Assembly: GCA_044451055.1 (NCBI GenBank)
Contig: JBIOJT010000003.1
Coordinates: forward strand, 1-38,078
Length of the DNA: 38,078 bases
Direction of reading: 5' to 3'
Source: Candidatus Methylomirabilales bacterium
GTDB taxonomy: Bacteria > Methylomirabilota > Methylomirabilia > Methylomirabilales > 2-02-FULL-66-22
The translations under genes and the position numbers were made by a program. A model generated the notes under the pieces. It saw only the letters and a list, made by a program, of their open reading frames with translations. It was not told the DNA's origin and did no database searches. Numbering within the stretch: the first letter of the stretch is position 1; the number at the start of each line of letters is the position of its first letter. Below, one piece after another: positions 837 through 37,211 of this stretch.

Positions 837-906
837 GTTCGAGCGTTCGGCTGTTCGGCAGTCCCGCAGTTCGAGGAAACCCCGATCAGCCGAACGGTCG
901 AACGCT
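837..906. repeat. Palindromic 8-bp-unit intergenic element, copy 1
   Basis: GTTCGAGC GTTCGGCT GTTCGGCA GTCCCGCA GTTCGAGG ... AGCCGAAC GGTCGAAC GCT. Confidence 0.85.
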
Positions 907-914
907 TTTTGCCG

Positions 915-2141
915 TCACGACCGATACCCTGCGTTGATCCGCACGTAGCCTTCGGAAAGATCGGTCGTCCACAGGCGCGCCGTCCTGCGGCCCGCATGCA
1001 GGTCCGCTACCAACACGAACTCCCGCTGCCGCAACCGGTGGTTCGCGGCCGCTTCGGCGCTGGATCCGAGACCCACGCCGCGGCGCACCACCGGCAGTTC
1101 GTCCACCGACAGGTCCACCGTCCCGGGGTCGAAGCGAGCGCCGGATCGTCCCAGGGCCGCCAACATCCGCCCCCAGTTGATGTCCTCTCCAAAGAGCGTG
1201 GTCTTGACCAAGGGGGAGGTGGCCACCGCCTCGGCCGCCAAGCGAGCCTCCCTGGTCGTGCGCGCCCCGCTGATCCGGACCTCCACCAGCTTCGTCGCTC
1301 CCTCTCCGTCCCGCACGATCATTTTGGCCAGGCTGAGGCACACCATCTCCAGCCCCACCTGGAACGTCCGGAAGGCGGGCGTGCCTGGGTGCAGCGCCGG
1401 CGTGCCGGAGGCCCCGGTGGCGAAGCACAGCGCCATGTCGTTGGTGCTGGTGTCCCCGTCCACCGTGATGCAGTGAAAGCTCGCATCCACCCCGAGCCGC
1501 AACGCCTTTTGCAGCGATCCCGCCCCCACGCTGGCATCGGTGGCGATCACGGCCAGCATGGTCGCCATCCGCGGGGCGATCATGCCGGATCCCTTGGCCA
1601 TCCCGCCGATCGTCACCCGCCGTTTCCCCACGGCGAAGGTGATGGCGGCCTCCTTGGGAGTGGTGTCCGTGGTGAGGATGGCTTGGGCCGCTCCGTTGCC
1701 TCCAGCGACCTCCAGTCGGGCTACGGCCTCCGCGATCCCCTTCCGGATCGCCTCCATGTCCAGCCGGCGCCCGATGACCCCCGTCGAGGCCACGAAGACG
1801 TGCCCGGCCGGCCGCTTCAGCACCCGCGCGACCTCCAGCGCCGTGGCCTCGGCATCGGTCAGGCCCTGGCGCCCCGTGCAGGCGTTGGCGTTCCCGCTGT
1901 TCAGGACGATGGCCGCGAACTTCCCTCCCCGCAGGTGGCGCCGTGAGAGCTGGACCGGAGCCGCCTGGACCCGATTCGTCGTGAACGTCGCCGCCACCGT
2001 CGCAGGGCCTTCCGACACGACCAGGGCGAGGTCCGGCTGGCCGCCCCGCTTCAATCCGCAGGCGACTCCCGCCGACCGGACTCCCTTGACGGCGGAGATC
2101 CCACCGGGAATCCCGAAAAGGTATGCGTCAGTCCCGCCCAC
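915..2141 (-). CDS. argJ: Glutamate N-acetyltransferase/ornithine acetyltransferase ArgJ
   Basis: Motifs NSGNANACTG, ASTGVIG, GMAKGSGMIAPRMATML, DGDTSTND, RDGEGATK. GGAGG RBS before GTG. Confidence 0.97.
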   Translation of the reverse strand: MGGTDAYLFGIPGGISAVKGVRSAGVACGLKRGGQPDLALVVSEGPATVAATFTTNRVQAAPVQLSRRHLRGGKFAAIVLNSGNANACTGRQGLTDAEATALEVARVLKRPAGHVFVASTGVIGRRLDMEAIRKGIAEAVARLEVAGGNGAAQAILTTDTTPKEAAITFAVGKRRVTIGGMAKGSGMIAPRMATMLAVIATDASVGAGSLQKALRLGVDASFHCITVDGDTSTNDMALCFATGASGTPALHPGTPAFRTFQVGLEMVCLSLAKMIVRDGEGATKLVEVRISGARTTREARLAAEAVATSPLVKTTLFGEDINWGRMLAALGRSGARFDPGTVDLSVDELPVVRRGVGLGSSAEAAANHRLRQREFVLVADLHAGRRTARLWTTDLSEGYVRINAGYRS

Positions 2142-2157
2142 CGTACCTCCTCATACC

Positions 2158-2257
2158 GTTCGGCGGTTCGGTTGTTCGACAGTTCGACGGTTCGGCAGTC
2201 CCGGGGGCCCGGCGGCTAGAACAGCCGAACGGTCGAACGGTCGAACCGTCGAACGCT
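2158..2257. repeat. Palindromic 8-bp-unit intergenic element, copy 2
   Basis: Five GTTCGRNN units plus GTCCCGGG, then five inverted units (GCTAGAAC AGCCGAAC GGTCGAAC GGTCGAAC CGTCGAAC). Confidence 0.9.
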
Positions 2258-2260
2258 CTC

Positions 2261-3328
2261 CTACGGAAACAGCCCCGGGATCCACAATCCGGCTCGCTCG
2301 TCCATCCCGGCCATCAGGTTCAAGCACTGGACGGCCTGCCCGGATGCCCCCTTCACCAGGTTATCGATGGCGGTCACGACGATGACCCGTCCCGTCCGGG
2401 CATCCGAGACGAGCCCGATGTCGCAGAAGTTCGAGTGGAGGACGTGCTTCGTCTCGGGGAGCTGCCCCTCGGCCAGGACGCGCACGAATGGCGCGTCGCG
2501 GTAAAACTTCCGGTAGAGCGCTAAGAGGTCGCCAGCCGCGCGCCGGCTCAGGAGCGAGACCGTGATGGTGGTCAGGATCCCGCGAGTGAGGGGGGCCAGG
2601 TGCGGCGTGAACGAGACCGTGACCTCGCGACCGGCCAGGCGTGAAAGCTCCTGCTCGATCTCAGGGGTGTGCCGGTGGGTGGCCACGCCGTAGGCCTTGA
2701 GGCTCTCGTTCACCTCGGAGTAGTGATACGGCAGCTCGACCTTCCGCCCCGCGCCCGAGACGCCGGAGATGGCGTCGATGATCACGGAGTCCGGATCCAC
2801 CTGGCCCTCGGCGATGAGCGGGGCCAGACCCAGCACCGCGCCGGTGGGATAGCAGCCCGGGACGGCTACCAGTCGCGCCCCCGCGATCTCGGCGCGATGG
2901 AGTTCGGGGAGGCCGTAGGCCGCTTCCTTCAGCAGGTGCGGGGCCACGTGCTCCACCTTGTACCACCGCGGGTAAGCCGCAGCATCCTTCAGCCGGTAAT
3001 CGGCCGACAGATCCAAGACCCGCGTCCCCCGCTGGATCAGGTCCGCGCCCACGGCCATGGAGGTCTTGTGGGGCAGTGCCAGGAAGACGAACTCCGCTTC
3101 GGCCGCCAGCTTGGCCGTATCCAGGGGAAGGCAGGCGAGATCCAGGAACCCGGCCAGGCTGGGAAACACCTTGCCGATGGGCTGGTTCGCATGCGTCTCG
3201 GCGGTGAGGGCGACAACCTTCGCCAGGGGATGCTGGAGGAGGAGCCGGAGCAGTTCCGCCCCCGTATATCCGCTGGCCCCGGCAATGGCCACACGGCGCA
3301 TCCGCTCGTTCTTTCCCACACCCGTCAT
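2261..3328 (-). CDS. argC: N-acetyl-gamma-glutamyl-phosphate reductase
   Basis: GASGYTG, DLSADYR, PGCYPT, SGVSGAGR, HRHTPEI, DNLVKGASGQAVQ. Start set at ATG 3328 (GGGAG RBS); 3337 and 3301 are alternatives. Confidence 0.96.
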   Translation of the reverse strand: MTGVGKNERMRRVAIAGASGYTGAELLRLLLQHPLAKVVALTAETHANQPIGKVFPSLAGFLDLACLPLDTAKLAAEAEFVFLALPHKTSMAVGADLIQRGTRVLDLSADYRLKDAAAYPRWYKVEHVAPHLLKEAAYGLPELHRAEIAGARLVAVPGCYPTGAVLGLAPLIAEGQVDPDSVIIDAISGVSGAGRKVELPYHYSEVNESLKAYGVATHRHTPEIEQELSRLAGREVTVSFTPHLAPLTRGILTTITVSLLSRRAAGDLLALYRKFYRDAPFVRVLAEGQLPETKHVLHSNFCDIGLVSDARTGRVIVVTAIDNLVKGASGQAVQCLNLMAGMDERAGLWIPGLFP

Positions 3329-3420
3329 ATCAGCCACTCCCGCCTGCCGCCAGAGATCTGGTCTCCGCCCCTCGTCATTCGGGGAGAAGAGCCCGGCACG
3401 CGCTCACGCCACCGCAGGCA

Positions 3421-3453
3421 TAAAAAAAGGGAAGAACCCGGAGGCCCTTCCCT
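3421..3453 (-). terminator. Intrinsic terminator after rplM-rpsI
   Basis: GGGAAGGGCC-TCCG-GGTTCTTCCC followed by T7 on the minus strand. Confidence 0.85.
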
Positions 3454-3474
3454 GTTCGTCTCTTGGCAAAACAA

Positions 3475-3870
3475 TTACCGCTTGGAGAACTGGAACCGGG
3501 CCCGCGCGCCCTTCTGACCGTACTTCTTTCGCTCCTTCGCTCGAGGATCGCGCGTGAGCAGACCGGCCTTCTTCAGCGCGGTCCGCATGGTATCGTCCAC
3601 CCGGACCAGGGCCCGTGCGATCCCCAGGCGAATGGCCCCTGCCTGGCCGGTAGAGCCGCCCCCGCTCACACTGGCCATGACGTCGTACTTCCCCTCCTGG
3701 CCGACGACCTTGAGGGGTTGCATCAGGAGCATCTTCAATGTGGGGTGGGTGAAAAACTCGTCCACTGGACGCTCGTTCACCTCGACCCTGCCCTCACCCG
3801 GCCGCAGCCAGACCCGCGCCACGGAACTCTTGCGGCGTCCCGTTCCGTACGCGCGCGATGTTGTTTCCAT
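3475..3870 (-). CDS. rpsI: 30S ribosomal protein S9
   Basis: [43 protein letters not shown]. Confidence 0.98.
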
Positions 3871-3888
3871 GCCTACCTCGTCTCCGAG

Positions 3889-4323
3889 TTACTTCGGGGC
3901 GACCATGGGTGCCGGCCGCTGTGCCGCGTGCGGGTGGGTGGGACCGGCGTACACCTTGAGCTTCCCGAAGAGTGCATCGCCCAGTTTCGTCTTGGGCAGC
4001 ATCCCCCGCACTGCCTTTTCCAGGACGCGCTCCGGCTTCTCCCGCAGCAGCTTGCCCAGCCGGATGGTTTTCAGGCCCCCCGGATGCTGGGAATGGTGGT
4101 GGTATTCCTTCAGGCGAAGCTTCCGGCCGGTCACCGCCACTTTCTCCGCGTTGATGATGACGACGAAGTCCCCCACGTCCGCGTGGGGAGCGAAGACCGG
4201 CTTGTTCTTCCCGCGCAGGATCATGGCCACCCGGCTGGCCAGGCGACCCAGAGTCTGCCCCTGGGCATCCACCAGGACCCACCGGCGGTCGATCTCACCC
4301 GCTTTTGGCTGATACGTCTTCAT
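3889..4323 (-). CDS. rplM: 50S ribosomal protein L13
   Basis: [43 protein letters not shown]. Confidence 0.98.
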
Positions 4324-4377
4324 GCAGACACGGACCTCACCGGGAAACAGTTGGAGAATGGCCTCCCGAACCGCGTT

Positions 4378-4406
4378 AAGATATGAACGTGGAGCGATTT
4401 TGTCAA
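4378..4406 (-). promoter_or_regulatory. sigma70-type promoter for rplM-rpsI
   Basis: TTGACA-17 bp-TATCTT. Confidence 0.7.
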
Positions 4407-4584
4407 GGGAAATGTCCCGCTTGTATCGCAGATTCTTCCGGCTCGGAATTCGCGACCTCCTTTACAGGCCTCGGCACGTGGCCTAGACTTCTGCCGCTAG
4501 GTCGTGAGCTACCCGGCCACCTGGTCGAGAAACACTGCCACCGCGCCGCCGCACGGCCAACGCTGAACACGAGGGGGAACAGCC

Positions 4585-5352
4585 ATGCCCACGGAGAAGA
4601 CGGTCTTGTATCGGACGGATGGCCGAATCGCGCGCATCACATTGAACAGGCCCGAGGTCCTGAACGCCGAGGACATGACGTTCCTGGCCGACATGACCGA
4701 GGCCATCCACGCGCTTCGCGACGACCGCGAGGCCAGGGTGGCCATCGTCACCGGTACGGGTCGCGCCTTCTGCTCCGGCGTGGATCTCAAGGCCCTCTCC
4801 AGCGGCCGCATCGATCCCTCGTTTTTCATCGGCCTCGAGCCGCTCTGGGACATCCTGGAGAATTGCGACAAGGCCGTGATCTGCGGCATCCAGAGCTACT
4901 GCCTGGGCGGAGGTCTCCAGATCGCCCTGGCCTGCGACCTGCGGATCGCGGCGGAGGACGCGATCCTGGGACTTCCGGCCGTGAAGGAATGTCTGGTCCC
5001 GGGGCTCGGGCCGTATCGGCTGCCCCGTTTGATCGGGATGGGCCGGGCGCGGGAGCTGCTCCTGCTCGGCGATACGATTGATGCTCGGCGCGCGCTGGAG
5101 ATCGGGTTGGTGAACGAGGTCGTCCCGCGGGTGAATCTGGAGGCAAGGTGTCAGGCGCTCGCGGAACGGTTCCTGACAGTGCCTCGCACGAGCATGGTTC
5201 ACATCAAGCGGCTCTCGAACCTGGCGTTTCAGAGCGACTTCGCCGACTTCATGCGGGCCTACGTCCCGGCGCAGCACGAATGCCTGGCCTCGCCGGAGCA
5301 CCAGGCCGCCATGGCCGCCTACCGCGCCGAGCAGGCGGCCAAAGAGAAGTAG
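4585..5352 (+). CDS. Enoyl-CoA hydratase/isomerase (crotonase) family protein
   Basis: ITLNRPEVLNA, GRAFCSGVDL, GGGLQIALACDLR, GLVNEVV. GAGGGG RBS. Confidence 0.92.
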   Translation: MPTEKTVLYRTDGRIARITLNRPEVLNAEDMTFLADMTEAIHALRDDREARVAIVTGTGRAFCSGVDLKALSSGRIDPSFFIGLEPLWDILENCDKAVICGIQSYCLGGGLQIALACDLRIAAEDAILGLPAVKECLVPGLGPYRLPRLIGMGRARELLLLGDTIDARRALEIGLVNEVVPRVNLEARCQALAERFLTVPRTSMVHIKRLSNLAFQSDFADFMRAYVPAQHECLASPEHQAAMAAYRAEQAAKEK

Positions 5353-5513
5353 AGGCAAATCTGGCAGGCGGGCGTCGCCATGCCGAACCCACCATCCCCG
5401 CGGAGGAGACCACGCGATTAGCTCTCGCGGCGCACCCACCACTTCAGACAGATATCACTGAACGTCGTGCCTCCCTGCATACTGCTATCGCGCCTCCCGC
5501 CACCGCCCCGCCG

Positions 5514-6064: not shown

Positions 6065-6092
6065 AAAAAACAAAGCCGGGCCCCGGCGCTTT
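6065..6092 (-). terminator. Terminator-like hairpin with U-tract
   Basis: GCCGG-GGC-CCGGC then TTTGTTTTTT on the minus strand. Confidence 0.45.
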
Positions 6093-6162: not shown

Positions 6163-6198
6163 AACTGCTTCAGAGAATCGCGTCTCCGGGAGTAGGTG

Positions 6199-6249
6199 AA
6201 AAAGCAAAACCGGGCCCCAAAGGACTCCTCGGTTCCTTTGGCAGCCCGG
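6199..6249 (-). terminator. Riboswitch expression-platform terminator
   Basis: CCGGGC-TG-CCAAAGGA...TCCTTTGG-G-GCCCGG then TTTTGCTTTTT. The 5' arm overlaps the 3' end of the aptamer. Confidence 0.8.
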
Positions 6250-6320
6250 CTTTCTCAAATTACGTGGGCGAGACCCGCGGCTTTCCGTCCACCCCTCGCG
6301 AGGTGTATGGCCTTTCGGGA
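6236..6320 (-). ncRNA. Cyclic di-GMP-I (GEMM-I) riboswitch
   Basis: Minus strand GAAAGGCCATACACCTC-GCGA-GGGGTGGACGGAAAGCCGCGGGTCTC...GAGAAAGCCGGGCTGCC. It has P2 with a GNRA loop, the GAC/AAAGCC junction and P3 with receptor. Confidence 0.9.
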
Positions 6321-6457
6321 ACTCTCGCTACATCCTGGGCTCCAGTGCTTGTCCTCCTTGCCAGCAGGAAGCTCTCACCCGCCGGTGTTGGCTACTCCGT
6401 CTGTCTCGTGCGCCCGGACTCCGAGAGTGACCCCACTAAATGGATGGGCACAGCCCT

Positions 6458-8099: not shown

Positions 8100-8124
8100 G
8101 TTCCTCCCAAGGCGATCATGTCCC

Positions 8125-8937: not shown

Positions 8938-8952
8938 TCCTCTGGCCGAAAA

Positions 8953-9030
8953 GCGTTCGGGAGTTCGGTGGTTCGGGTGTTCGGCTGTTCTCGGTACGCC
9001 CGAACTCCCGAACCGTCGAACAGCGAACGC
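8953..9030. repeat. Palindromic 8-bp-unit intergenic element, copy 3
   Basis: GC GTTCGGGA GTTCGGTG GTTCGGGT GTTCGGCT GTTCTCGG TAC GCCCGAAC TCCCGAAC CGTCGAAC AGCGAAC GC. Confidence 0.9.
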
Positions 9031-9033
9031 CTT

Positions 9034-11841
9034 TCAGTGCTTCAGGTACGCTCCGATCCGTTCCAGGCTTTCCCGGAGCTTCACATGCGCGTCCTGCAGT
9101 TCCACCTGGATGGCCCGTTGCTGGCTCACGACGGCCGCCGGCGCCTTCCCCAGGAAGTCTTGGTTGGCCAGCTTCCGGTTGACCCGATCCAGCGCCTGCT
9201 CCACCTTGACCAGCTCCCGGTCTAGCCGCTCCCGTTCCTCGGAAAGATCGATCAGATCCTCCAGGGGCACGTGCGCCTCGATGCCCTGGACCACGGCCGT
9301 GGCCGCGACAGCAGGCCGGGCCACGTCCTGCCCCCACGTGAGATGTGACAGCCTCGCCTGGCTGGCCAGGTATCCCTGACAGGCCTCCAGGAGTTGGTCC
9401 TGGGTCGGGTTGAACGTGCGCAGGGTGAGGGGCAACCGCTTCGCCGGCGGGATGTTGTAGTTCGACCGGATGTTCCGCACCTCGCGGGTAATCTCCATGA
9501 GGGTGGCCATGGTCTCCACTGCCTCGGGCCAGTGGAGGGCGCCATCCGCCTGGGGCCAGGGCGCCCGCATGATGCTCTCGCCCTCGTGCGGCAGGCGCTG
9601 CCAGATCTCCTCCGTGATGAACGGCATGACCGGGTGCAGCAGTCGGAGAGACTGCTCCAGGACGTGGATGAGGAGGACCCGCCCGGTCCGCTGGGTCGCC
9701 GGATCCTCCGGCGCGGCCAGCCGGTCCTTCACGATCTCGAGATACCAGTCACAGTACTCGTGCCACAGGAACTGGTACAGGATGGAGGCCGCGTCGTTGA
9801 ACCGATAGGCCGTGAGCGCGTCAGTCACGCCCTGGGTCACCTCGGTCAGGCGGCTGAGGATCCAGCGGTCTGGCAGCGTCAGCGGAAGATCCGCCAGACG
9901 AGCCCGCCGGACTTCGTCCTCGTCGAGATGGCCGGCCACGAAGCGGTAGGCGTTCCAGATCTTGTTGCAGAAAAACCGGTAGCCCTCGATCCGCTTCACC
10001 GAGAGCTTCACGTCGCTCCCCTGGCTCGCCAGGGCGGCCAGCGTGAACCGAAGCGCGTCCGCCCCGAAGGCCGGGAACCCGTCTGGGAACTGGCGCCGGA
10101 TCCCCTCCAGGGCGCCGGGCGGCGCCCCGCCGCTCTTTGCGGCCGACAGCAGCTCGTCCAGGGTGGCCCCGTGGATCACGTGCAGTGGATCGATGACATT
10201 GCCCCGGGTCTTGGACATCTTCTCGCCCTGCTCATCCCGGATCAGGCCATGGATGTACACCTCCCGGAATGGGACGTCCCCCATGAAGCGCAGCCCCATC
10301 ATGATCATCCGGGCGACCCAGAAGAACAGGATGTCGAAGCCCGTCACCAGGCACGCGGTGGGATAGTAGACGCGGAGTTCTTGCGTCCGCTCCGGCCAGC
10401 CCAGGGTCGAGAAGGGCCACAGGGCCGAGCTGAACCAGGTATCCAGGACGTCGGTCTCCTGTCGCAGCGCGCCGCCGCATCGCGGACAGGCCGCGGGCGC
10501 CGTCCGCGATACGATGACCTCTCCACACGGATCGCAATACCAGGCGGGGATCCTGTGCCCCCACCAGATCTGCCGGGACACGCACCAGTCCCGGATGTTC
10601 CGCATCCACTCGTAGTAGGTCTTTCCCCATTGCGAGGGAATGATCCGGATCCGCCCCTCCTCCACCGCGCGGATGGCCGGCTCGGCCAGCGGCCGCATGC
10701 GGACGAACCACTGTCGCGAAAGGGTCGGCTCCACCACCGTCTGGCACCGATAGCAGTGGCCGACGGCATGGCGATGGTCCTCAATCTTTGTGAGGAGGCC
10801 GTCCCGCTGGAGGTCCTTCACCACCTGCTCGCGACAGGCGAACCGGTCCATGCCCTGGTAGCGCCCGGCGTTTGCGTTCATGCGGCCATCATCCGCCATG
10901 ATCTTCACCTGGGGGAGATGGTGGCGGAGGCCGCATTCGAAGTCCTTGGGATCGTGGGCCGGCGTCACCTTCACCGTCCCGGTGCCGAAGGCCCGATCCA
11001 CGTAGGCGTCGGCAATGATGGGTATCTCCCGATTCATGAGAGGAAGAATGACGGTCTTGCCCACCAGGTCCCGGTAGCGCTCGTCGTCGGGATGCACCGC
11101 GACGGCCGTATCCCCCAACATGGTCTCGGGCCGCGTCGTGGCCACCACCACCCCGCCTGTGCCCGAGGACAGGGGGTACCGGATGTGCCAGAGCTTCCCC
11201 TCCCGCTCCTGGTATTCCACCTCCAGGTCCGAGAGCGCCGTCTGGCAGCGGGGACACGAGTTGATGATGTAGTCGCCCCGGTACGTGAGCCCCGCCTCGT
11301 ACAGCTGGCAGAAGACCTCCTTCACCGCCTCGGACAGGCCCGGGTCCATGGTGAACCGTTCCCGGCGCCAGTCGCACGAAGCGCCCAGAGTCTTCAGCTG
11401 GCGGATGATGGTGCCACCGGAGGCTTCCTTCCAGCGCCAGACGCGCTGGATGAAGGCCTCCCGGCCAATCTGGTCCCGGCTGGAGCCCTCCTGGGCCAGT
11501 TGCCGCTCCACGACGTTCTGGGTCGCGATCCCGGCATGATCGGTCCCCGGCATCCAGAGGGTGTTGTCCCCCTGCATCCGGTGCCAGCGGATCAGGATGT
11601 CCTGGAGGGTATTGTTCAGGGCATGCCCCATGTGAAGGGAGCCCGTCACGTTCGGCGGGGGGATCACGATGCTGTACGGCTGGGACGGCGAGGTCTCATC
11701 CGCGTAGAACAGGCCCCGCTCCTCCCAGAACCGATACCAGCGCTCCTCCACGCCACGGGGATCGTAGCCCTGTTTCGGCGAGGCTCCCGCCTCGGATGGT
11801 CCCGAACGCTGAGAGCCATCTGTTTCGTGAACGTCGGTCAT
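9034..11841 (-). CDS. valS: Valine--tRNA ligase
   Basis: PPPNVTGSLHMGH, TTRPETM, SRQIWWGH, DVLDTWFSS, KMSK and a C-terminal coiled coil. Start set at ATG 11841 (GGAG RBS). Confidence 0.97.
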   Translation of the reverse strand: MTDVHETDGSQRSGPSEAGASPKQGYDPRGVEERWYRFWEERGLFYADETSPSQPYSIVIPPPNVTGSLHMGHALNNTLQDILIRWHRMQGDNTLWMPGTDHAGIATQNVVERQLAQEGSSRDQIGREAFIQRVWRWKEASGGTIIRQLKTLGASCDWRRERFTMDPGLSEAVKEVFCQLYEAGLTYRGDYIINSCPRCQTALSDLEVEYQEREGKLWHIRYPLSSGTGGVVVATTRPETMLGDTAVAVHPDDERYRDLVGKTVILPLMNREIPIIADAYVDRAFGTGTVKVTPAHDPKDFECGLRHHLPQVKIMADDGRMNANAGRYQGMDRFACREQVVKDLQRDGLLTKIEDHRHAVGHCYRCQTVVEPTLSRQWFVRMRPLAEPAIRAVEEGRIRIIPSQWGKTYYEWMRNIRDWCVSRQIWWGHRIPAWYCDPCGEVIVSRTAPAACPRCGGALRQETDVLDTWFSSALWPFSTLGWPERTQELRVYYPTACLVTGFDILFFWVARMIMMGLRFMGDVPFREVYIHGLIRDEQGEKMSKTRGNVIDPLHVIHGATLDELLSAAKSGGAPPGALEGIRRQFPDGFPAFGADALRFTLAALASQGSDVKLSVKRIEGYRFFCNKIWNAYRFVAGHLDEDEVRRARLADLPLTLPDRWILSRLTEVTQGVTDALTAYRFNDAASILYQFLWHEYCDWYLEIVKDRLAAPEDPATQRTGRVLLIHVLEQSLRLLHPVMPFITEEIWQRLPHEGESIMRAPWPQADGALHWPEAVETMATLMEITREVRNIRSNYNIPPAKRLPLTLRTFNPTQDQLLEACQGYLASQARLSHLTWGQDVARPAVAATAVVQGIEAHVPLEDLIDLSEERERLDRELVKVEQALDRVNRKLANQDFLGKAPAAVVSQQRAIQVELQDAHVKLRESLERIGAYLKH

Positions 11842-24858: not shown

Positions 24859-24980
24859 AGCGTTCGGCTGTTCGACCGGTCGACTGTTCGGCGGTTCCCC
24901 TCTGCGAAATGACTCGAACGGCCGGGACCCACGGCGCCCGGCGCTGACCCACCGTCGTGGCGTGGCTCCCCCGAACGCTT
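24859..24980. repeat. Palindromic 8-bp-unit intergenic element, copy 4 (with internal insert)
   Basis: AGC GTTCGGCT GTTCGACC GGTCGACT GTTCGGCG GTTCCCCT ... ACTCGAAC ... CCGAACGCT. Perfect 9-bp terminal inverted repeat. Confidence 0.8.
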
Positions 24981-24989: not shown

Positions 24990-25904
24990 TTACGCTGGAA
25001 CCCCTTCGACTTTGCGTGCGGTCAGCTCCGCGTGGTAACTGCTCCGGACCAGTGGGCCCGAATAGACACCCTTGAACCCCAGGACGTACCCCATCTCTTC
25101 CAGGGCCTTGAACCGATCGGGATGCACGAATTCCACGACCGGCAGATGCTGCTTCGTCGGCTGCAGGTACTGGCCGATGGTGAGGAGGTCGCAGCCCACC
25201 CCGCGCGCGTCCCGCATCAGCGCCAGCACCTCTGCCTCGGTCTCGCCAAGGCCCAGCATGATCCCGGTCTTGGTGATGGGTTGCCCGAGTTCCCTGGCGA
25301 TCCGCAGGACCTCGAGGGAGCGATGGTAACGAGCCTGGACGCGGACCTTCTTGGACAGCCGCTCCACCGTCTCGAGGTTGTGATTGAAGACGGTCGGCCG
25401 GCTTTCCACCACGGCGTGAATGCTCTCCCGGTTCGCCTTGAAGTCCGGGACCAGCACCTCTATTTGGGCTCCAGGATTCAGTTCACGGATGGCGCGGACC
25501 ACGGCGGCAAAGTGCGCGGCCCCACCGTCTCTCAGGTCGTCCCGGGCCACCGAGGTTACCACCACGAACCTCAGGCCGAGCCGGCGGCTCACCTCAGCGA
25601 CGTGCCTCGGCTCTTCCGGGTCGGGCGGAGCCGGCCGCCCGGTCGTGACAGCGCAGAACCCGCAACTCCGCGTGCAGGTGTCCCCCAGAAGCATGAAGGT
25701 GGCCGTCCCTCGGGTCCAGCACTCGCCCTGGTTGGGACAGCGGGCCTCCTCGCACACTGTATGCAGGCGAGACCCACTGAGGAGCACCCGCATGTCGTGC
25801 ACCCGCTCCCAGTGGCCCGACCTGGCGCGTAACCACGGCGGGAGCCGCCGCGCCGGCGGCGCGGGCGTCCCCATTCCCTCAATCTGCAAGAGCTCCAGTG
25901 TCAT
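24990..25904 (-). CDS. lipA: Lipoyl synthase
   Basis: [42 protein letters not shown]. Confidence 0.97.
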
Positions 25905-28427: not shown

Positions 28428-28443
28428 TCGCATCCTCTCAAAT

Positions 28444-28523
28444 GCGTTCGAGGGTTCGGTGGTTCGAGGGTTCGAGGATTCTTGGTACGCCCGAACAACC
28501 GACCTCTCGAACATTCGAACGCT
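28444..28523. repeat. Palindromic 8-bp-unit intergenic element, copy 5
   Basis: GC GTTCGAGG GTTCGGTG GTTCGAGG GTTCGAGG ATTCTTGG TAC GCCCGAAC AACCGACC TCTCGAAC ATTCGAAC GCT. Confidence 0.9.
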
Positions 28524-28535
28524 TCTGGTTCCGAG

Positions 28536-30218
28536 CTACATCCGTTCGGGCGCCGACACCCCGAGCAGAGTGAGTCCGTTGGCGACCACTTGCCGCACCG
28601 CTGCGACCATCGCCAGGCGTGCCCGGCTGAGGTCGCGATCATCCGAGATCACCCGCTCTTCCGTGTCCTTGTATTTCGTGAAGTAGCCGTGGAAGCCGGC
28701 GGCCAGCTCCTGCAGATACGTGGTCACCCGGTGCGGCTCGTGGGCCAGCGCCGCGTTCTGCAGCATCTCGGGATAGACGGCCAGGCGCTTCACGATGGCC
28801 AACTCCTCGGGCACCGTGAGCCGCGACAGATCCGCATTCTCATAGGGTCCTGGCATCCCCGCCTCGGCCGCCTTGCGCCCCATGCTGCAGGCGCGGGCAT
28901 GCGCGTACTGGACGTAGAAGACCGGGTTGTCCATCGTCTGCCGCTTCGCCATTTCAATGTCGAAATCAAGCTGGGCCTCGGACCGGCGGGTGAGGAAGAG
29001 GAACCGTGCCGCGTCCATCCCCACCTCGCTCACGACCTCGCGCAGCTCCACGAACTCACCGGTCCGCTTCGACATCGGGACCGGGAGGCCACCGCGCAGG
29101 ACCTTCACCATCTGGAGCAGGATCACTCGGAGGATCTCCGGGTCGTGGCCGAGGGCCTGGATCGCCGCCTTCACCCGCGGGATGTAGCCCCCATGGTCGG
29201 CCCCCCAGATATTGATGAGGCGGTCGAAGCCGCGGCGAATCTTATTGGCATGATAGGCGATGTCGGAGGTAAAGTAAGTGGGTTCCCCGTTGCTCCGTAT
29301 CAGGATGCGATCCTTCTCATCCCCGAAGTCGCTGGCACGGAAGCCGACAGCCTTCCCCTCCTCGTAGAGGTAACCACCCGCGCGGAGCGTGGCCAGGACC
29401 GCCTCCACCTCTCCGGAGTCGTAGAGGCTCCGCTCCGAAACCCACGAGCCAAAGACCACGCCGAAGGTGCGGAGGTCCGCCTCGATCTCCCCCAGGAGGA
29501 TGCGGGACGCGCGCTCGGTGCAGGTGGAGATCGCCTGGTCCATTCCGAGATCGGACAGGCCGGGGACGGCCCCGGCGATCTCGGTTGCCAATTCCCGGAT
29601 GTACTCGCCGTGGTAGCCATTCTCGGGGAACTGGACCGACCGCCCGCAGGCTTCCAGATGCCGCGCCCAGACCGATTCCCCCAGGAGGCGCATCTGGCTC
29701 CCGGCGTCGTTAATGTAGTACTCGCGCTCGACGCGATAGCCCACCGCCTCCAGGAGGTTGGCGATGGCATCGCCCAGGGCGGCGCCGCGCCCGTGTCCCA
29801 CGTGGAGGGGCCCCGTCGGGTTCGCACTCACGAACTCCACCTGAACCCGCTGTCCCTGCCCGACGGTCGCGCGCCCGTAGGCGGCAGCCCCCGCCAGGAC
29901 CTCCCGGATCGCCTCGTGCCACCAGCCATTGGCCACGAAGATATTGAGGTATCCCGGGCCGGCAACCTCGATCTTCTCGACCAGCGCGGGGTCCGGGTTC
30001 ACCGCCCGCTGGATCGCCATGGCGACATCGCGGGGCGATCGCCGAACCTGTTTCGCCAGAGCGAAACTCACGGTGGTAGAAAGGTCGCCGAATGCCGGCT
30101 CCGGCGGATATTCCCAGGCGATCTCCGGCATGGACACAGGTGGCCAGCCCTGCTCTTGGCTCGCGCGGGTCACGGCATCCGCCAGGACGGCACCCAGGAT
30201 CTTCTTGAGTTGTTGCAC
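28536..30218 (-). CDS. argS: Arginine--tRNA ligase
   Basis: EFVSANPTGPLHVGHGR, EYYINDAG, GADHGGY, MSKR, YVQYAHAR, LGVSAPERM. Confidence 0.97.
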   Translation of the reverse strand: MQQLKKILGAVLADAVTRASQEQGWPPVSMPEIAWEYPPEPAFGDLSTTVSFALAKQVRRSPRDVAMAIQRAVNPDPALVEKIEVAGPGYLNIFVANGWWHEAIREVLAGAAAYGRATVGQGQRVQVEFVSANPTGPLHVGHGRGAALGDAIANLLEAVGYRVEREYYINDAGSQMRLLGESVWARHLEACGRSVQFPENGYHGEYIRELATEIAGAVPGLSDLGMDQAISTCTERASRILLGEIEADLRTFGVVFGSWVSERSLYDSGEVEAVLATLRAGGYLYEEGKAVGFRASDFGDEKDRILIRSNGEPTYFTSDIAYHANKIRRGFDRLINIWGADHGGYIPRVKAAIQALGHDPEILRVILLQMVKVLRGGLPVPMSKRTGEFVELREVVSEVGMDAARFLFLTRRSEAQLDFDIEMAKRQTMDNPVFYVQYAHARACSMGRKAAEAGMPGPYENADLSRLTVPEELAIVKRLAVYPEMLQNAALAHEPHRVTTYLQELAAGFHGYFTKYKDTEERVISDDRDLSRARLAMVAAVRQVVANGLTLLGVSAPERM

Positions 30219-32260: not shown

Positions 32261-32273
32261 GAATCCATATCCT

Positions 32274-33002
32274 CTAATCAGGGGGTGCCTTCACTGTTCC
32301 TTCAAGGGCAATTTGCAGTGGAGACGCCAGGGTGTCCACACCCCAGGGTTCCGCAGGGTTCACCACATGCAGCTTCTCCCCTCTCAGGAAGGCTTCCAGC
32401 GTGGCATAGGCAATCCGCAGCATGTTCAACCCGGCTTCCCGCGTGTTATAGCCGATGTGCGGCGTGATCAGAACATTGGGGAGCGACCGGAAGACGTAAT
32501 CCTCTGGAAAGGGTTCTTCCTCGTGCACATCCAGGGCGGCGCTTGCGATCTTCCGCTCTTTGAACAGCGCCGCCAGCGCCTGGGTATCGACGATCTTCGC
32601 CCGAGCGGTATTGACGAAATATGCCGACGGCTTCATCCGGTTGAGTAGCCCTCCGGAAATCAGCCGTTCCGTCTGTGCGTTGTAGGCAAGGTGAACGGAG
32701 ACCACGTCCGCGCCGGAAAACAGCCCCTCCAGGGAGACCAGCCGGAGCCCGTGCTTGCCCCTCTCCGGCCTGGCGTTCCGCGTCCAGCCCATGACCTTCA
32801 TGCCGATTCCCGCTCCAAGCCGGGCCACCTCGGTGCCGATGGGGCCCAGCCCGACGACCCCCAGGGTTTTCCCGTGCAGCTCCCGACCCTGAAATCGGAT
32901 GGTTTCCCATTCGCCCTGTTGCAGGCTGTGATACCCGAAGGCGATGTGACGGGTGAGCGACAGGATCATCCCGAGAGCGAACTCGGCGACGGAGGTCGCG
33001 CC
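32274..33002 (-). pseudogene. N-terminally truncated D-2-hydroxyacid dehydrogenase (SerA-like)
   Basis: In-frame GATSVAEFALGMIL..., ELHGKTLGVVGLGPIG, VNTAR, LDVHEEEP, TPHIG. An in-frame TGA lies about 10 codons upstream of the homologous part, so roughly the first 100 aa are missing. Confidence 0.75.
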
Positions 33003-33004
33003 GG

Positions 33005-33033
33005 AAGCTACGACGGGCCTAGCCCATTGTCAA
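33005..33033 (-). promoter_or_regulatory. sigma70-type promoter abutting the truncated dehydrogenase
   Basis: TTGACA-17 bp-TAGCTT. Confidence 0.6.
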
Positions 33034-33154
33034 GAGGCGGCGCTGGGCAAGCATCCCGAGCTCCAGCAATACCCGACAGCCTGTCCTGTCGTGGCAAAGG
33101 GCACCGCCAATCCGGCTGGAGGTCGCGTGCGGGCCGCACACGGGTGTGGAAGGA

Positions 33155-34486
33155 TCAGGTGCGCAGGGACACGCCCTGCCTCCCGAGAACTGCCGACACG
33201 AGGCCGTGGGCCGTGGCCTCGGTCTTGAGGGCCGGCAGCCCGAGATGGGACCCGAGGTCCTGGAGGGAGAGATCGTCCAGGAAGACGTCCTCGTCCTCCT
33301 TCAGGGCCAGCGAGGGGATGAGGATGGCATCGCCCGGCCGGTCCCGCCGCCCGTCGAGGATCTTGACGACGTCCGTGCCGGTGAGGAGGCCGGCGCACGT
33401 CACCGACCCGCCGAAGAACTCGTTCACGACGGGAATCAGCTCCACCCTCAGGCCGCCGATCTGATTCAATCGTTCTATCGCGCCCTGCAAGACCGGAGTG
33501 GCCAGCATTCCCGAGACCACGGAAAGCTGGCGACCCGGAGAAACGGCCACAGGTAGGCGCCGCTCCAGACGGCGGAACTCGTCGAGGAACTTCCGGCTGC
33601 CTCCGACCCCGTTGCCGAGCTGTGCGTATCCCCCATACGTACGACCGGCCGGAAACGGCCGGCCCGCCAGGAGGTAGAACTCGTCCGAGGGGAAAGCGAA
33701 GCGCGTCCCAACCTCCCGGAGGAACCGGCGGCGCCAGCGCTCCGCCCAATCGAGGAGCGACCGCGCATACTCCGGGTCCGGGGACTTCAGCACCGGCAGC
33801 TTCTCGCGGTACTGCGTGAGTCCCACGGGGACGAGTGCCACGGTCTCGACGAAGGGGTGGAAGCGGGCCAGGTCCTCCAGGCTCTTGGCCAGGTGCTCGC
33901 CGTCATTGATGCCCGGGCACAGGACCACCTGGGTGTGCATGTGGATGCGCCCGGCGGCGAAAACGGCGATCTGCTCCAGGACGTTCGGGGCATTGGGGTT
34001 GCCGAGGATTCGGTTGCGGAGCGGCCAGTCGGTGGCGTGGACCGAGATGTAGAGCGGGTGGAGGCGCTGCTTCAGGATGCGGTCCACGTCCGCCTGGCTG
34101 AGATTGGTCAGCGTGGCGAAATTGCCGTTCAGGAACGAGAAACGGTAGTCGTCGTCCTTGAAGTAGAGGGCGCGGCGCATCCCCCGGGCGTTCTGGTGGG
34201 CAAAGCAGAAGGCGCACTTGTTGTTGCAGGCCCGCATCTTCAGCGGATCCACCTCGAGACCCAGGGGCAGGTCCTCCGGCTTCTCGAGGCGGGCGTGGTG
34301 CTCTTCTCCATTGCCATCGCGCCAGACCAGGTCCACCCGCCTCGCCGTCTCCATGAAACGAAGGTCCAGGGGGTCCTGCACCGCCCGGCCGTTCAGGCTC
34401 ACGAGGAGGGAGCCGGCTGCCACTCCCGCCTCTGCGGCGGGACTGCCGGGCTCCACAGCATGAATGGTGAGCGGCTTCGTCGTCAC
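33155..34486 (-). CDS. DUF512 family PDZ plus radical-SAM-like Fe-S protein
   Basis: N-terminal PDZ (VEPGSPA), CNNKCAFCF, KDDDYR.SFL.GNF.TLTN, VPVGLT, SDEFY, QLGNGVG, AGLLTG.D, FLDD. Confidence 0.9.
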   Translation of the reverse strand: MTTKPLTIHAVEPGSPAAEAGVAAGSLLVSLNGRAVQDPLDLRFMETARRVDLVWRDGNGEEHHARLEKPEDLPLGLEVDPLKMRACNNKCAFCFAHQNARGMRRALYFKDDDYRFSFLNGNFATLTNLSQADVDRILKQRLHPLYISVHATDWPLRNRILGNPNAPNVLEQIAVFAAGRIHMHTQVVLCPGINDGEHLAKSLEDLARFHPFVETVALVPVGLTQYREKLPVLKSPDPEYARSLLDWAERWRRRFLREVGTRFAFPSDEFYLLAGRPFPAGRTYGGYAQLGNGVGGSRKFLDEFRRLERRLPVAVSPGRQLSVVSGMLATPVLQGAIERLNQIGGLRVELIPVVNEFFGGSVTCAGLLTGTDVVKILDGRRDRPGDAILIPSLALKEDEDVFLDDLSLQDLGSHLGLPALKTEATAHGLVSAVLGRQGVSLRT

Positions 34487-34592
34487 GCGCGTCTCCCGGC
34501 GTGCCGGTATGTCTGGAGCGCCCGAATTGAGACAGGGAAGGCCGCGACTGCGGCAACCGCCACCCGCACTCCACAGCGCGTCTCCCCCGCCA

Positions 34593-35126
34593 TCACTGAT
34601 CGTTCAGGAGCCGCGCCCCCCGATAGATGTAGTCCAGGCCGGAGGTGACCGTGAGGGTCAGCGTGATCACGACCAGTGGAAGGATGGCGACCTTGAGGTC
34701 CGGAAAGAAGGTGTCCAGCATGGCGAACAAGACCGTGACCAGTTGGAAACCCGTCGTGGCCTTTCCCATCCATGACGGAGGCATGCCGATCTTGCCCAGG
34801 AACATGTACAGGATGACGGAGCCGCCGATCAGCAGGACGTCACGGCTCACGACGATGATCGTGAACCAGCGCGGCAACTCCTTGAGGATCGTGAGCGTGA
34901 CGACGGTTGTGGTCAGCAGCAGTTTATCCGCCACCGGGTCCAGCACCATGCCCAGCGTCGTCTTCTGCTTCCGCCAGCGGGCCACGAGCCCGTCCAGGGC
35001 ATCGGTGATCCCGGCGAGCAGGAACAGCGCCAGCGCGGCGGCCATCTGGCGATACAAGAGCAGGACCGTGATGACCGGCGTCATCAGGATGCGGAGGATC
35101 GTCAGGCGATTCGCCAGGGTCAGCAT
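34593..35126 (-). CDS. pgsA: CDP-alcohol phosphatidyltransferase (PgsA-like)
   Basis: ANRLTILR and the DALDGLVAR..G..LDPVADK signature; hydrophobic. Exact acceptor uncertain. Confidence 0.8.
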   Translation of the reverse strand: MLTLANRLTILRILMTPVITVLLLYRQMAAALALFLLAGITDALDGLVARWRKQKTTLGMVLDPVADKLLLTTTVVTLTILKELPRWFTIIVVSRDVLLIGGSVILYMFLGKIGMPPSWMGKATTGFQLVTVLFAMLDTFFPDLKVAILPLVVITLTLTVTSGLDYIYRGARLLNDQ

Positions 35127-35142
35127 GGGCTGTGGCCCGACC

Positions 35143-36249
35143 TCACGCGGTAGCCTCGGCGGCCCCGCGGGCGATGGCTCCTCCCGCGGTGGCGCTCCCG
35201 TTCAGACAGTATACGATCTCCTGGCGCAGCTCGTCCAGCCCGGCCCCCGTCTTGGCCGAGATGGCGACGCGACCGCTGCCCGGGCGCCACGCGAAAGGTG
35301 ACCGCCCGAGGCGGTCGATCTTGTTGAACACCAGGATGGTGAGCCGATCCGCCAGCCCCAACTCTCCCAGCACGGACTCCACGGCCGCCTGCTGCGCCTC
35401 CGCGTGGGGATGACTGATGTCCACCACGTGGAGCAGGACAGTCGCCTCCTGGATCTCCTCCAGCGTGGCCTGGAATGCCGCCACGAGCTGGTGGGGAAGC
35501 TTGCGGATGAAACCCACCGTGTCCGACAAGAGCGCCACCCGGTCGTCGGGCAGCGCGAGGCGGCGAAGCCTCGGGTCCAGCGTGGCGAAGAGCTGGTCCC
35601 GCACCACCACGCCGGCGTGGGTCAGCGCATTCAGGATCGAGGACTTCCCCGCATTGGTGTACCCGACCAGGGCCAGGATGGGAAACGGGACCTTCCGCCG
35701 CGGCCGCCGCAGGAGCGCGCGGTGCCGCCGCACCTGCTCCAGGTCCCGGCGGATCTTGGCCATGCGGGTCCGGACCCGCCGCCGGTCCGACTCCAGCTGG
35801 GTCTCGCCCGGCCCCCGGGTGCCGATGCCGCCGCCCAATCGCTCGAGGTGCGTCCAGGCGCCGGCCAATCGGGGGAGGAGGTAGTCGAGCTGCGCCAGCT
35901 CCACCTGAAGCTTCCCCTCCCGGCTCTGGGCCCGCTGGGCGAAGATGTCCAGGATGAGCCCGGTCCGGTCCACCACCCGCTTGCCCAGCAGCTCCTCCAG
36001 ATTGCGCTGCTGTGATCCGGACAGCTCCTCGTCCAGGATGACCAGGTCTGCGCCCGCGCAGCGCTGGCGGATTTCCAGCGCCTTGCCTTTCCCGATGAGA
36101 TACCGAGGGTCGAGTCGATCCCGCTCCTGCAGGACGGTATCGGCGACGCGCGCCCCGGCCGACCGGGCGAGCTGTTCCAGCTCGGCCAGCGAGTCCTCGG
36201 CCTCCCAGCGCGCCTGCGGGTGCCGGCAGACGCCCACCAGGACGGCCAC
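35143..36249 (-). CDS. hflX: Ribosome-splitting GTPase HflX
   Basis: ILDIFAQRA, GTRGPGE, GYTNAGKS, FATLD, DTVGF, NKID, SAK. Start uncertain. Confidence 0.95.
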   Translation of the reverse strand: MAVLVGVCRHPQARWEAEDSLAELEQLARSAGARVADTVLQERDRLDPRYLIGKGKALEIRQRCAGADLVILDEELSGSQQRNLEELLGKRVVDRTGLILDIFAQRAQSREGKLQVELAQLDYLLPRLAGAWTHLERLGGGIGTRGPGETQLESDRRRVRTRMAKIRRDLEQVRRHRALLRRPRRKVPFPILALVGYTNAGKSSILNALTHAGVVVRDQLFATLDPRLRRLALPDDRVALLSDTVGFIRKLPHQLVAAFQATLEEIQEATVLLHVVDISHPHAEAQQAAVESVLGELGLADRLTILVFNKIDRLGRSPFAWRPGSGRVAISAKTGAGLDELRQEIVYCLNGSATAGGAIARGAAEATA

Positions 36250-36274
36250 TTCTGGCTCACGACGGTTCAGCGTG

Positions 36275-37180
36275 TCACGGGCGATGGGGAATCTCCTCCC
36301 GGGCCATTCGGGCCCGCGCCAGGCGCGCGGTCAGGGCCTCGCCATCCCCGTCCCGGATGGCCCCCTCCAGCGCCGCCAGGACCTCGCGGTATGCGGTCAG
36401 CGCGCGCAGAATCGGGCCGCGGTTCATGAGGAAGATGTCCCGCCACATCAACGGATGGCTGGCGGCCACCCGCGTGAAATCGCGGAGCCCCCCGGCCGCA
36501 AACTGCAGCCGCTCTTCGCCCAGGGGCAATCCCAGGACGGCATCCATCAGGGCATAGGCCACGAGGTGCGGGAGGTGACTCACGGCCGCGAAGACCTCGT
36601 CGTGCCAGCCGGCCTCCATGGTGACGATCGTCGAGCCCACCCCGCGCCACAGCGCGGCAACGCGCTGCACGGCGTTCGCGTTCGTCAAGGCACTCGGCGT
36701 CCCGATCCAGTTCGCCCCCTCGAAGAGGTCCGGACGCGCCGCCGCCGGCCCCGACCGCTCCTGCCCCGCGATGGGATGGCCGGCCACGAACCGGCCGTCG
36801 GGAAAGGCGGCGTCCCCCGCGGCGAGGATCAAGCCCTTCACGCTCCCGACGTCGGTGACCAGGCAATCATCCGTCACGCGTCGGGCCACCTCCGGCAGCA
36901 GGGCCACGATCTCGGCCACCGGCACGGCCAGCACCACGAGGTCGGCGCGCGCCACGTCCGCGGTCAGCTCCCCCGCGACCCGATCCACCATCCCCATGGC
37001 GAGGGCCACCTTGCGGTGGGCGGGATCCGCATCCACCCCCGCCACCGTCTCGACCAAGCCGGCCTTTCTTGCCGCCAGGGCGAGACTGCCGCCGATGAGG
37101 CCCGCGCCCACGACGGCCATCTCGCGAAACAACGGCGTCGCCGAATGCGGATTGCGGAATCCGGAATGCGGAATGTTCAT
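36275..37180 (-). CDS. tyrA: Prephenate/arogenate dehydrogenase
   Basis: [24 protein letters not shown]...[14 protein letters not shown]. Start at ATG 37180, TTG 37132 or ATG 37120. Confidence 0.92.
37141..37175. repeat. 7-bp tandem array (CGGAATG x5)
   Basis: CCGAATG CGGATTG CGGAATC CGGAATG CGGAATG. Confidence 0.85.
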
Positions 37181-37192
37181 ATCGTCAAGAGC

Positions 37193-37211
37193 CGCCGAAC
37201 AGTCGAACGCT
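37193..37211. repeat. Half copy (copy 6) of the 8-bp-unit element
   Basis: CGCCGAAC AGTCGAAC GCT. Confidence 0.7.

Follow-up and report, generated by a model that had tools for sequence, protein, structure and literature searches.

A dispersed REP-like palindrome of 8-bp unit arrays behind stop codons in a genus of Methylomirabilota and its relation to four-helix-bundle gene cassettes

Introduction

Directly behind the stop codons of six minus-strand genes (those for ArgJ, ArgC, ValS, LipA, ArgS, and DAHP synthase), a 38,078-nucleotide stretch of Candidatus Methylomirabilales DNA (contig JBIOJT010000003.1 of assembly GCA_044451055.1; this whole stretch is called the window below) carried phased runs of the 8-bp unit GTTCGRNN, in most cases followed by inverted NNYCGAAC units. 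What kind of element such a run (hereafter GTTCG element) is, and what would keep its cores constant, was the question addressed here. The comparison of the window with its own genome and with related genomes supports a dispersed, repetitive extragenic palindrome (REP)-like element of unusual modular build with a strong post-stop preference; its sequence family ties gene-less hairpins to cassettes with an S23p/Avd-like four-helix-bundle protein, and its design, in which the 5-bp cores are invariant, the 3-bp spacers vary freely, and an arm has about five cores, is not explained by stem pairing alone.

REP-type palindromes shape mRNA stability, operon polarity, and genome rearrangement, and to our knowledge such repeats have hardly been described outside Proteobacteria. 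We likewise know of no role for the S23p/Avd-like four-helix-bundle protein outside diversity-generating retroelements (DGRs). If this protein reads the arrays, the puzzle of their design and that of the protein could both be tested with one binding assay. Essential operons such as argCJ contain these repeats, which are also found behind genes for aminoacyl-tRNA synthetases, and, differing between close strains, they could serve as strain markers.

Number and build of the GTTCG elements

The window was contig C3 of a draft genome (G000: 4.5 Mb, 496 contigs, 65% G+C, 72% complete), which was fragmentary, and repeats tend to break assemblies. Over 2-5 kb, contigs of G000 shared 78-91% identity with public loci titled Candidatus Methylomirabilis, Methylomirabilota, or NC10. 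Matches to GTTCGRNNGTTCGR, the pattern for phased GTTCGRNN dimers, numbered 21 in the window as against a mean of 0.09 in dinucleotide-preserving shuffles (n = 100), and 0/100 shuffles reached 21; the repeats that a sequence-only reading of the window had placed behind six genes were all present there with the content described. Throughout G000, 66 clusters of phased units were found, 40 of them two-armed. After the copies were oriented by the upstream gene, their consensus was AARRGC-(GTTCGRNN)n-GTTC-loop-GAAC-(NNYCGAAC)n-GCYYTT, the typical form having n = 4 units per arm plus a short loop (about 75 to 100 bp). The 6-bp ends AARRGC and GCYYTT were inverted repeats themselves, and the palindrome therefore reached 6 bp further on each side than the GTTCGRNN/NNYCGAAC arms to which the initial reading had confined it.

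Across 319 units of G000, the GTTCG core was near-invariant, position 6 was a purine (G in about 60% of units), position 7 was seldom A, and position 8 was free. Arm length had a narrow distribution: (i) among 80 arms in G000, 31 had five cores, 22 had four, 25 were shorter, and two were longer (six cores); and (ii) among 61 arrays at 34 loci of the related genome G012, 40 had five cores, 11 had four, 10 were shorter, and none was longer.

Left and right units had been proposed to pair with each other, and this held for the cores but not for the variable positions of the arms. Watson-Crick complementarity of spacers in the outer register was 51/34/21% by position versus 46/33/25% at random, and spacer identity in the inner register was 36.6% versus 36.3% at random. 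Runs of three spacers common to loci occurred once in G000 (0.75 expected) and once in G012 (1.02 expected), while adjacent units had like spacers in 3.8% of cases in G000 (4.0% expected) and in 10/208 cases in G012 (5.0% expected). All these spacer tests were null, and therefore no trace of recent copy-and-paste, slippage, or fold-back synthesis was left; fold-back synthesis of the second arm was ruled out, the arm spacers being noncomplementary in both registers. Because cores, termini, and arm length were kept at about 40 loci per genome despite random spacers, we infer that the GTTCG cores are under sequence-specific selection beyond pairing alone, and this core/spacer pattern speaks for recognition of the cores by their sequence rather than for simple stem pairing.

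Two further candidates were considered: (i) adenine-specific (DGR-like) mutagenesis as a source of the random spacers, considered since the GTTCG core has no A, was ruled out by the right-arm core and the sister words (GTACG, CGCAGATT, and GCGATCA), which keep A on both strands, and was also contradicted by the restriction of position 6 to purines; and (ii) mimicry of the tRNA T-loop (GTTCGA) fitted poorly with the share of G at position 6 (about 60%, as above) and with the absence of a flanking stem.

Placement behind stop codons and RNA-level features

Genes were called with a home-made codon-score caller, which marked 76% of G000 as coding and gave exact stop positions but crude start positions, so that distances to the next start were approximate. 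All 40 two-armed copies of G000 were intergenic. By orientation of the neighboring genes, 32 copies were co-directional, five convergent, and one divergent, divergent spacers accounting for 19.7% of the intergenic length versus 1/38 copies (binomial P = 0.0025). Element ends lay a median of 8.5 nt past the stop, and at most 20 nt past it in 26/32 co-directional copies; 30/37 copies lay within 20 nt of a facing stop, and 28/32 co-directional copies were closer to the stop than to the next crudely called start. The post-stop intergenic enrichment suspected from the window was accordingly present genome-wide, and in the window itself, the onset RGC-GTTCG on the mRNA strand was confirmed 2 to 12 nt past the stop for all six copies. 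The description of these copies as lying between co-directional housekeeping genes was right in that minus-strand genes were involved throughout, but the argJ copy lay at the end of a transcription unit rather than inside an operon, because the next gene is rpsB, with a conserved promoter-like stretch of its own.

The four intact copies of the window folded far better than shuffles (z -3.9 to -8.6; Table 1), while the composite copy behind lipA folded no better than modestly because a second repeat was nested in it, and the half copy behind the DAHP synthase gene gave no hairpin in the fold test. The antisense strand was more stable in 21/32 co-directional copies; this was judged unconvincing as a strand bias of the fold, the element being close to symmetric. 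At gathering score, the c-di-GMP-I riboswitch of Table 1 was the only Rfam match in the window, and no family matched the elements. On the mRNA strand, at least five T within 8 nt past the stem were present in 2/39 copies of G000 and a T-run of at least four after the stem in 7/39, and a consensus terminator scan called none of the elements except one 5-pair stem in the 837-906 copy on the plus strand; the element is not a canonical terminator. The earlier assertion that no copy has a terminator-like U-tract was close to correct, but the valS copy is followed by UUUU. One contig from an RNA library spanned 2126-2364, across the argC-argJ copy, and as DNA can occur in such libraries, it only weakly suggests co-transcription through this copy. 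REPs that lie no more than about 15 nt from a stop codon reportedly lower expression of the upstream gene via ribosome stalling.

Distribution and turnover at orthologous junctions

The comparison genomes were related and hence not independent samples. Three-unit arrays were present in 18/21 genomes of the genus (G000 included; 1 to 288 matches each) and in 3/230 other genomes of the phylum (one with 127 matches and two with 3-4), while the genus members G002, G009, and G015 (94, 87, and 98% complete) had no match; the pattern read backwards, used as a control, had no match in any genome. A scan of 185,579 species genomes gave at least 120 loci, and 28 of those listed were palindromic. Among the matches listed, (i) palindromic loci titled Methylomirabilota or NC10 had the same termini as the window family, (ii) GGTTCGRR palindromes with other ends were found in a Haliscomenobacter genome and in Acidobacteriota genomes, and (iii) the 92 other loci lacked an inverted partner arm over 170 nt. 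By the genus and phylum counts above, the family is nearly restricted to one genus of Methylomirabilota (NC10).

Empty sites, which the sequence-only reading had suggested looking for in relatives, were found at the argJ, argC-argJ, and valS junctions. At the argJ junction (18 genomes read), a GTTCG element was present in seven genomes, namely G000 and its six closest relatives read, and these seven differed in spacers and unit numbers and had a nested repeat at differing places; others had palindromes of CGCAGATT-, GTCGAW-, and GCCGAG-type words or an unrelated palindromic REP-like repeat, and the junction was empty in 4/18. At the argC-argJ junction, the GTTCG element was found in G000 and G012 only and at different offsets, a 7-mer family took its place in G017, G016, and G001, and no repeat was found in G003 and G020. 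At the valS junction (16 genomes), three genomes including G000 had the GTTCG element, at least nine had other unit arrays, and three to four had none; the close pair G003 and G012 differed in occupant. Public read sets (four runs, all giving contigs of related strains, mostly 90-99% alike) agreed with such turnover: 108 other letters replaced the argJ copy between well-matching flanks, and several short indels were found within or near the valS copy.

Nested inside GTTCG elements, apparently beside a GTTCGG unit, was a second palindrome (GGGACCCACGG...CCGTGGGTCCC type), about 50 bp long. It was located at five sites of G000 (Table 1), in relatives, where its position differed by species at one junction, and in the NC10-labeled loci L070, L074, and L126; it resembles a repeat with GTTCG elements as its insertion target.

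Cassettes with a four-helix-bundle gene

PF05635 four-helix-bundle genes were present in 20/21 genomes of the genus, G000 included (1 to 16 matches each), and in the 27 loci read, most of these genes were enclosed by inverted unit arrays (7-9 bp per unit), each with its own word. The suggested search for a small four-helix-bundle or GxxExxY gene enclosed by the repeats was positive: (i) GTTCGRNN arrays enclosed a four-helix-bundle gene in G013, G003, and G012, the G013 cassette having GTTCGRNN x4 and NNYCGAAC x6 around an open reading frame (ORF) for a TIGR02436 four-helix-bundle protein (locus L167:1483-1896), and the G012 cassette having in addition a GCTCTT end and a GGAAGC-type 5' end; and (ii) sister families served as flanks in G000, where contig C306 had a PF05635 gene between GTACGRNN x4 and its inverse, and C173:6899-7231 (locus L152) had, immediately behind a stop codon, inverted arrays of the 9-mer CGCAGATTN around a PDDEXK_3 (GxxExxY-type) gene that contains two stop codons itself. 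Cassette arrays had 3-10 units, not always five.

Five related genomes (G014, G019, G020, G006, and G010) lacked the G013 cassette (about 620 bp) at the same permease-oxidoreductase junction, where their spacer measured 23-55 nt; relative to them, the cassette is an insertion. Of 28 cassettes, 24 followed a co-directional ORF with high G+C content at third codon positions (GC3). Orthologous four-helix-bundle genes had nonsynonymous-to-synonymous rate ratios (dN/dS) of 0.04-0.15, indicating purifying selection, and the cargo protein matched the Xanthomonas S23p structure, PDB 2gsc (E 1e-10). PF05635 resembles the Avd protein of DGRs according to the available part of PMC10053308.

Protein similarity ran parallel to the flank word: the closest copies to the G013 protein (54-67% identity, in other genomic contexts) all had GT[T/A]CGRNN flanks, those with 47-49% identity had GTTCGAG 7-mers, and those with at most 45% had other words. 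For 361 pairs of copies from differing contexts, the Spearman correlation of protein identity with 5-mer similarity of the flanks was 0.20, which 5/2000 permutations reached, whereas the outer-flank control gave -0.04.

Four cassettes with shared context, L179 (G020), L180 (G017), L196 (G001), and L197 (G012), had saturated dS, dN of about 0.3, and flanks of different words and periods (GTCCRANN 8-mers vs GTTCGAG 7-mers), and their flank word has either changed in concert or been replaced.

Among the one-armed GTTCG loci of G000, 12 were read 420 nt towards the missing arm; none enclosed a gene, and most had decayed remains of a second arm by eye.

Interpretation of the GTTCG elements

The reading preferred here, given a probability of about one half, takes the GTTCG copies as ORF-less REP-like or intervening sequence (IVS)-like inserts that are co-transcribed and form post-stop RNA hairpins whose cores are read by a factor. 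The copies would be ORF-less members of a class of cassettes widespread in this Methylomirabilota (NC10) genus; in that class, inverted arrays of 7-9 bp units surround a small four-helix-bundle gene (TIGR02436/PF05635) of the Avd-like family that includes S23p of 23S rRNA IVSs. Cassettes and ORF-less copies would both insert between a stop codon and the next ribosome-binding site or promoter, and because they are co-directional with the host gene, they would be transcribed together with it, probably at all copies. The RNA form would be a long, regularly bulged hairpin of the REP or IVS-stem type with its onset 0-12 nt past the stop, and this hairpin could have a protective effect on the upstream message, serve as a site of double-strand processing, and make the terminating ribosome unwind the stem base. 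A trans-acting factor would read the GTTCG cores, since these appear to be kept by sequence-specific selection and not by pairing alone; the cassette-encoded four-helix-bundle protein is the leading, unproven candidate for this core reader.

A gene-bearing parallel is the 23S rRNA IVS with an S23p ORF as found in Coxiella and Leptospira. According to the available part of PMC4990558, the Coxiella IVS is bounded by terminal inverted repeats that RNase III cuts, contains an S23p ORF described as decaying and, before this ORF, two to three tandem heptamers whose number varies between strains, and is called a selfish element. As far as this source goes, the likeness comprises a stem of terminal inverted repeats around a PF05635/TIGR02436 ORF, tandem units before the ORF, and the existence of ORF-less and ORF-bearing forms. 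The differences are that (i) GTTCG elements lie in mRNA spacers behind stops instead of helix 25 or 45 of 23S rRNA, (ii) their stems are built wholly of unit arrays, (iii) the NC10 cassette ORFs are under purifying selection while the Coxiella ORF is described as decaying, and (iv) the S23p-type ORF is found in related cassettes (G013, G003, and G012) and not in the GTTCG copies of G000.

Several results weigh against the preferred reading. No gene was found inside the GTTCG copies of the window or of G000, and the two four-helix-bundle genes of G000 (72% complete) both lacked GTTCG flanks. A close homologue of the GTTCG-flanked protein was missing from G016 (268 array matches, 96% complete; best protein match 41%), G022 (127 matches; best 40%), and G005 (35 matches, 98% complete; no protein match), so that in these assemblies GTTCG cores are kept without it. 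Across genomes, neither the association of a close homologue with many arrays (Fisher one-sided P = 0.063) nor the correlation of gene count with array matches (Spearman 0.36, P = 0.11) was significant, and a strict dependence of the arrays on a cognate four-helix-bundle gene was rejected on these counts and on the three genomes just named. The covariation of protein and word can be explained by common descent of gene and flanks without binding, and we know of no nuclease or recombinase activity of a four-helix bundle. Because the spacers of filled and empty junctions did not align, no target-site duplication or exact insertion boundary was readable there; and because no recent copies of the GTTCG element (shared spacers) were seen, mobility of the ORF-less form is suggested by presence and absence alone.

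A narrower proposal, rather unlikely by our estimate, concerns what the arrays might bind. TRAP sites have short invariant cores and free spacers of fixed length, and their RNA is wrapped round a ring-shaped homo-oligomer. The GTTCG arrays might be wrap-around sites of the same manner for the S23p/Avd-like four-helix-bundle protein in the form of a homopentamer ring: with five GUUCG cores spaced at 8 nt, each subunit would have one core, the arm of five cores would correspond to the homopentameric ring of the S23p family (the available part of PMC4990558 cites Xanthomonas S23p as such a ring), and the palindrome would put a GUUCG array first on the transcript from either direction, so that protein on the 5' arm would compete with the hairpin. 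Each element might then act as a protein-operated switch of mRNA structure behind a stop codon, and the word families with matching paralogues might be private post-transcriptional circuits grown from IVS-like selfish cassettes. Unlike TRAP sites, GTTCG sites come in inverted pairs, and cassette arrays are not always of five units. If true, this proposal would give a function to the long-uncharacterized S23p/IVS protein family.

An ordinary selfish miniature inverted-repeat transposable element (MITE) is an unlikely alternative to the preferred reading. The arrays would be multi-site terminal repeats bound by an unlinked conventional transposase, with no gain to the host, and the four-helix-bundle and PDDEXK_3 genes would be passengers landed in hairpin loops. 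Like MITEs and foldback elements, GTTCG elements are noncoding inverted-repeat inserts with presence/absence polymorphism at orthologous junctions and with gene-bearing relatives, and the insertion of a whole cassette in G013, the patchy, genus-restricted spread (no match in G002, G009, and G015), the nested second repeat, by which hairpins do receive insertions, and two unrelated cargo proteins with the same style of flank all agree with such an origin. However, no two of the 40 (G000) or 34 (G012) copies share spacers, which means no recent copying, and without copying, selection among copies cannot hold the cores invariant while the spacers randomize. Target-site duplications were not seen at the nonaligning filled and empty junctions, no transposase stood beside any array (the genome-wide search in G000 covered Y1_Tnp, PF01797, alone), and the four-helix-bundle genes show purifying selection and a similarity that follows that of the flank words.

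Host regulatory sites acting at the DNA level, i.e., paired binding arrays for a global DNA-binding protein, are improbable, even though they have been proposed for the same build. The paired sites of Geobacter metallireducens (classes 1-3) lie on opposite strands with 3-4 tandem repeats of about 8-9 nt each, are numerous per genome, and were proposed to bind a global regulator of the IHF/HU type (PMC2700814, available part). Their architecture matches that of the GTTCG element, as judged on build and not on homology, while words and phylum differ, and the available part of PMC2700814, supplements aside, mentions no link to stop codons or to four-helix-bundle genes. Invariant cores, free spacers, and a fixed site number per arm do look like a protein-binding array, and the inverted layout places the same word on both DNA strands. 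Against such sites stand the location of the copies behind stops (1/38 in divergent, promoter-bearing spacers), the change of word in junction occupants between close relatives, which fits a conserved regulon poorly, the presence of at least five word families in one genome, which would need many regulators, and the 8-bp period, which would not hold the sites on one face of B-DNA.

Still less probable is growth in place by short-unit slippage, in which terminator or attenuator hairpins would have become microsatellite-like palindromes rather than a dispersed element. Terminators also lie directly behind stops, a T-run of at least four follows the stem in 7/39 copies, short direct arrays of other words occupy the same spacers in relatives, and several short indels lie within or near the valS copy in metagenome contigs of related strains. 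Arm length is nevertheless fixed at 4-5 units (none longer in G012), adjacent units share no spacers and thus give no sign of slippage, about 40 unrelated loci have one and the same word and termini, as do loci in other species, and the canonical T-tract is found in 2/39 copies only, with canonical terminators existing elsewhere in the genome.

A classical REP/REPIN (REP doublet forming hairpins) family mobilized by a REP-associated tyrosine transposase (RAYT, a Y1 HUH transposase) is scarcely credible: the element is a high-copy extragenic palindrome placed after stops and G000 has three Y1_Tnp matches, but phased GTTCG arrays are absent from the 900 bp around each of these three genes (on C115, C33, and C287), the element ends in AARRGC instead of the conserved GTAG-type head of REP palindromes, and the arms are unit arrays without spacer complementarity.

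The window's own contig had no Y1 transposase match, in agreement with the absence of a RAYT gene noted at the outset, this search too covering the Y1 family alone. The initial label of a REP-like but architecturally different element can be kept in part. As with REPs, bacterial interspersed mosaic elements (BIMEs), and REPINs of Proteobacteria, GTTCG elements are short, high-copy extragenic palindromes in probably transcribed post-stop spacers, are rare in divergent promoter regions, form predicted RNA hairpins, and differ between related genomes. Unlike these, they have no RAYT association, each arm consists of 8-bp units, with a 5-bp core that does not vary and a free spacer, instead of one side of a single imperfect stem, and their gene-bearing relatives carry a four-helix-bundle gene and not a transposase. 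The label has to be qualified in that the build itself was known before, from the paired tandem-repeat sites of Geobacter metallireducens (PMC2700814, available part). With the supplements of that paper aside, no description of this family, of Methylomirabilota repeats, or of dispersed unit-array palindromes linked to PF05635 genes was found in the literature; the present analysis contributes the arm fixed at five cores, the statistics on cores and spacers, the comparison of a cassette insertion with empty sites, and the protein-word covariation.

Further features of the window and other array families

The coordinates of the window copies and of the other features are collected in Table 1.

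Table 1. GTTCG elements and other features of the window, with further sites of the nested repeat in G000
Feature	Position	Strand	Context	RNA fold
Full copy	831..912	-	After argJ stop (915-917), upstream of rpsB promoter-like region; right arm partly decayed	-41 kcal/mol, z -4.97
Full copy	2152..2260	-	Fills argC-argJ spacer; argC stop 2261-2263, stem onset 6 nt past stop; argJ ribosome-binding site directly adjoins its 3' end	z -4.92
Full copy	8947..9036	-	Between valS (stop 9034-9036) and birA; valS UGA inside base of predicted stem; then UUUU	-52.3 kcal/mol, z -8.60
Composite copy	24859..24980	-	After lipA stop (24990-24992); GTTCG arms split by nested repeat	z -1.61
Full copy	28438..28529	-	Between argS (stop 28536-28538) and co-directional inositol-phosphatase-like gene	z -3.92
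Half copy, 2 units	37193..37211	-	After DAHP synthase stop (37217-37219); no inverted partner	z +0.42
Array of ~5 units of 7 bp (GAATGCG-like on plus strand)	37140..37175	-	Directly 3' of half copy on mRNA strand	
Nested repeat	~24918-24970		Inside composite copy	
Nested repeat	C23 ~3040-3095		G000	
Nested repeat	C255 ~1545-1600		G000	
Nested repeat	C128 ~7776		G000	
Nested repeat	C184 ~2340		G000	
Putative rpsB leader	~660-830	-	Upstream of rpsB (3-659); promoter-like box and leader conserved in most of the genus	
Canonical-looking intrinsic terminator	6500-6465	-	Long stem and T-tract	
Canonical-looking intrinsic terminator	3453-3428	-	Long stem and T-tract	
c-di-GMP-I riboswitch aptamer	6237-6321	-	55.1 bits (gathering score 35)	

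The 7-bp array behind the DAHP synthase gene and the adjoining two-unit half copy made up a hybrid of two array families without a hairpin; period-7 GAATG arrays numbered 4+2 in G000. The array families with at least three units in G000 were, as counts on the two strands, GTTCG of period 8 (38 + 30), TCAGC of period 7 (18 + 15), GACAA of period 7 (12 + 10), ATCTG of period 9 (6 + 2), and GTACG of period 8 (3 + 4). At C328:4694-5000 of G000, close to the end of the contig, arrays of three or more families (GTTCG 8-mers and 7-mers of the AGCTGCC and GACTCAA types) formed a mosaic that was repeated twice. Short direct arrays of the 7-mer GAGAGCC, with no inverted partner, filled stop-to-start spacers at L201 (G014), L204 (G019), L252 (G020), and L264 (G009), and the array of G020 contained a TGA stop.

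The stretch between the argJ-side element and rpsB, which gave no Rfam match at gathering score, had a promoter-like box followed through most of the genus, as was a leader of structured appearance, and it may be an rpsB leader. The c-di-GMP-I riboswitch aptamer and the two canonical-looking terminators all lay on the minus strand.

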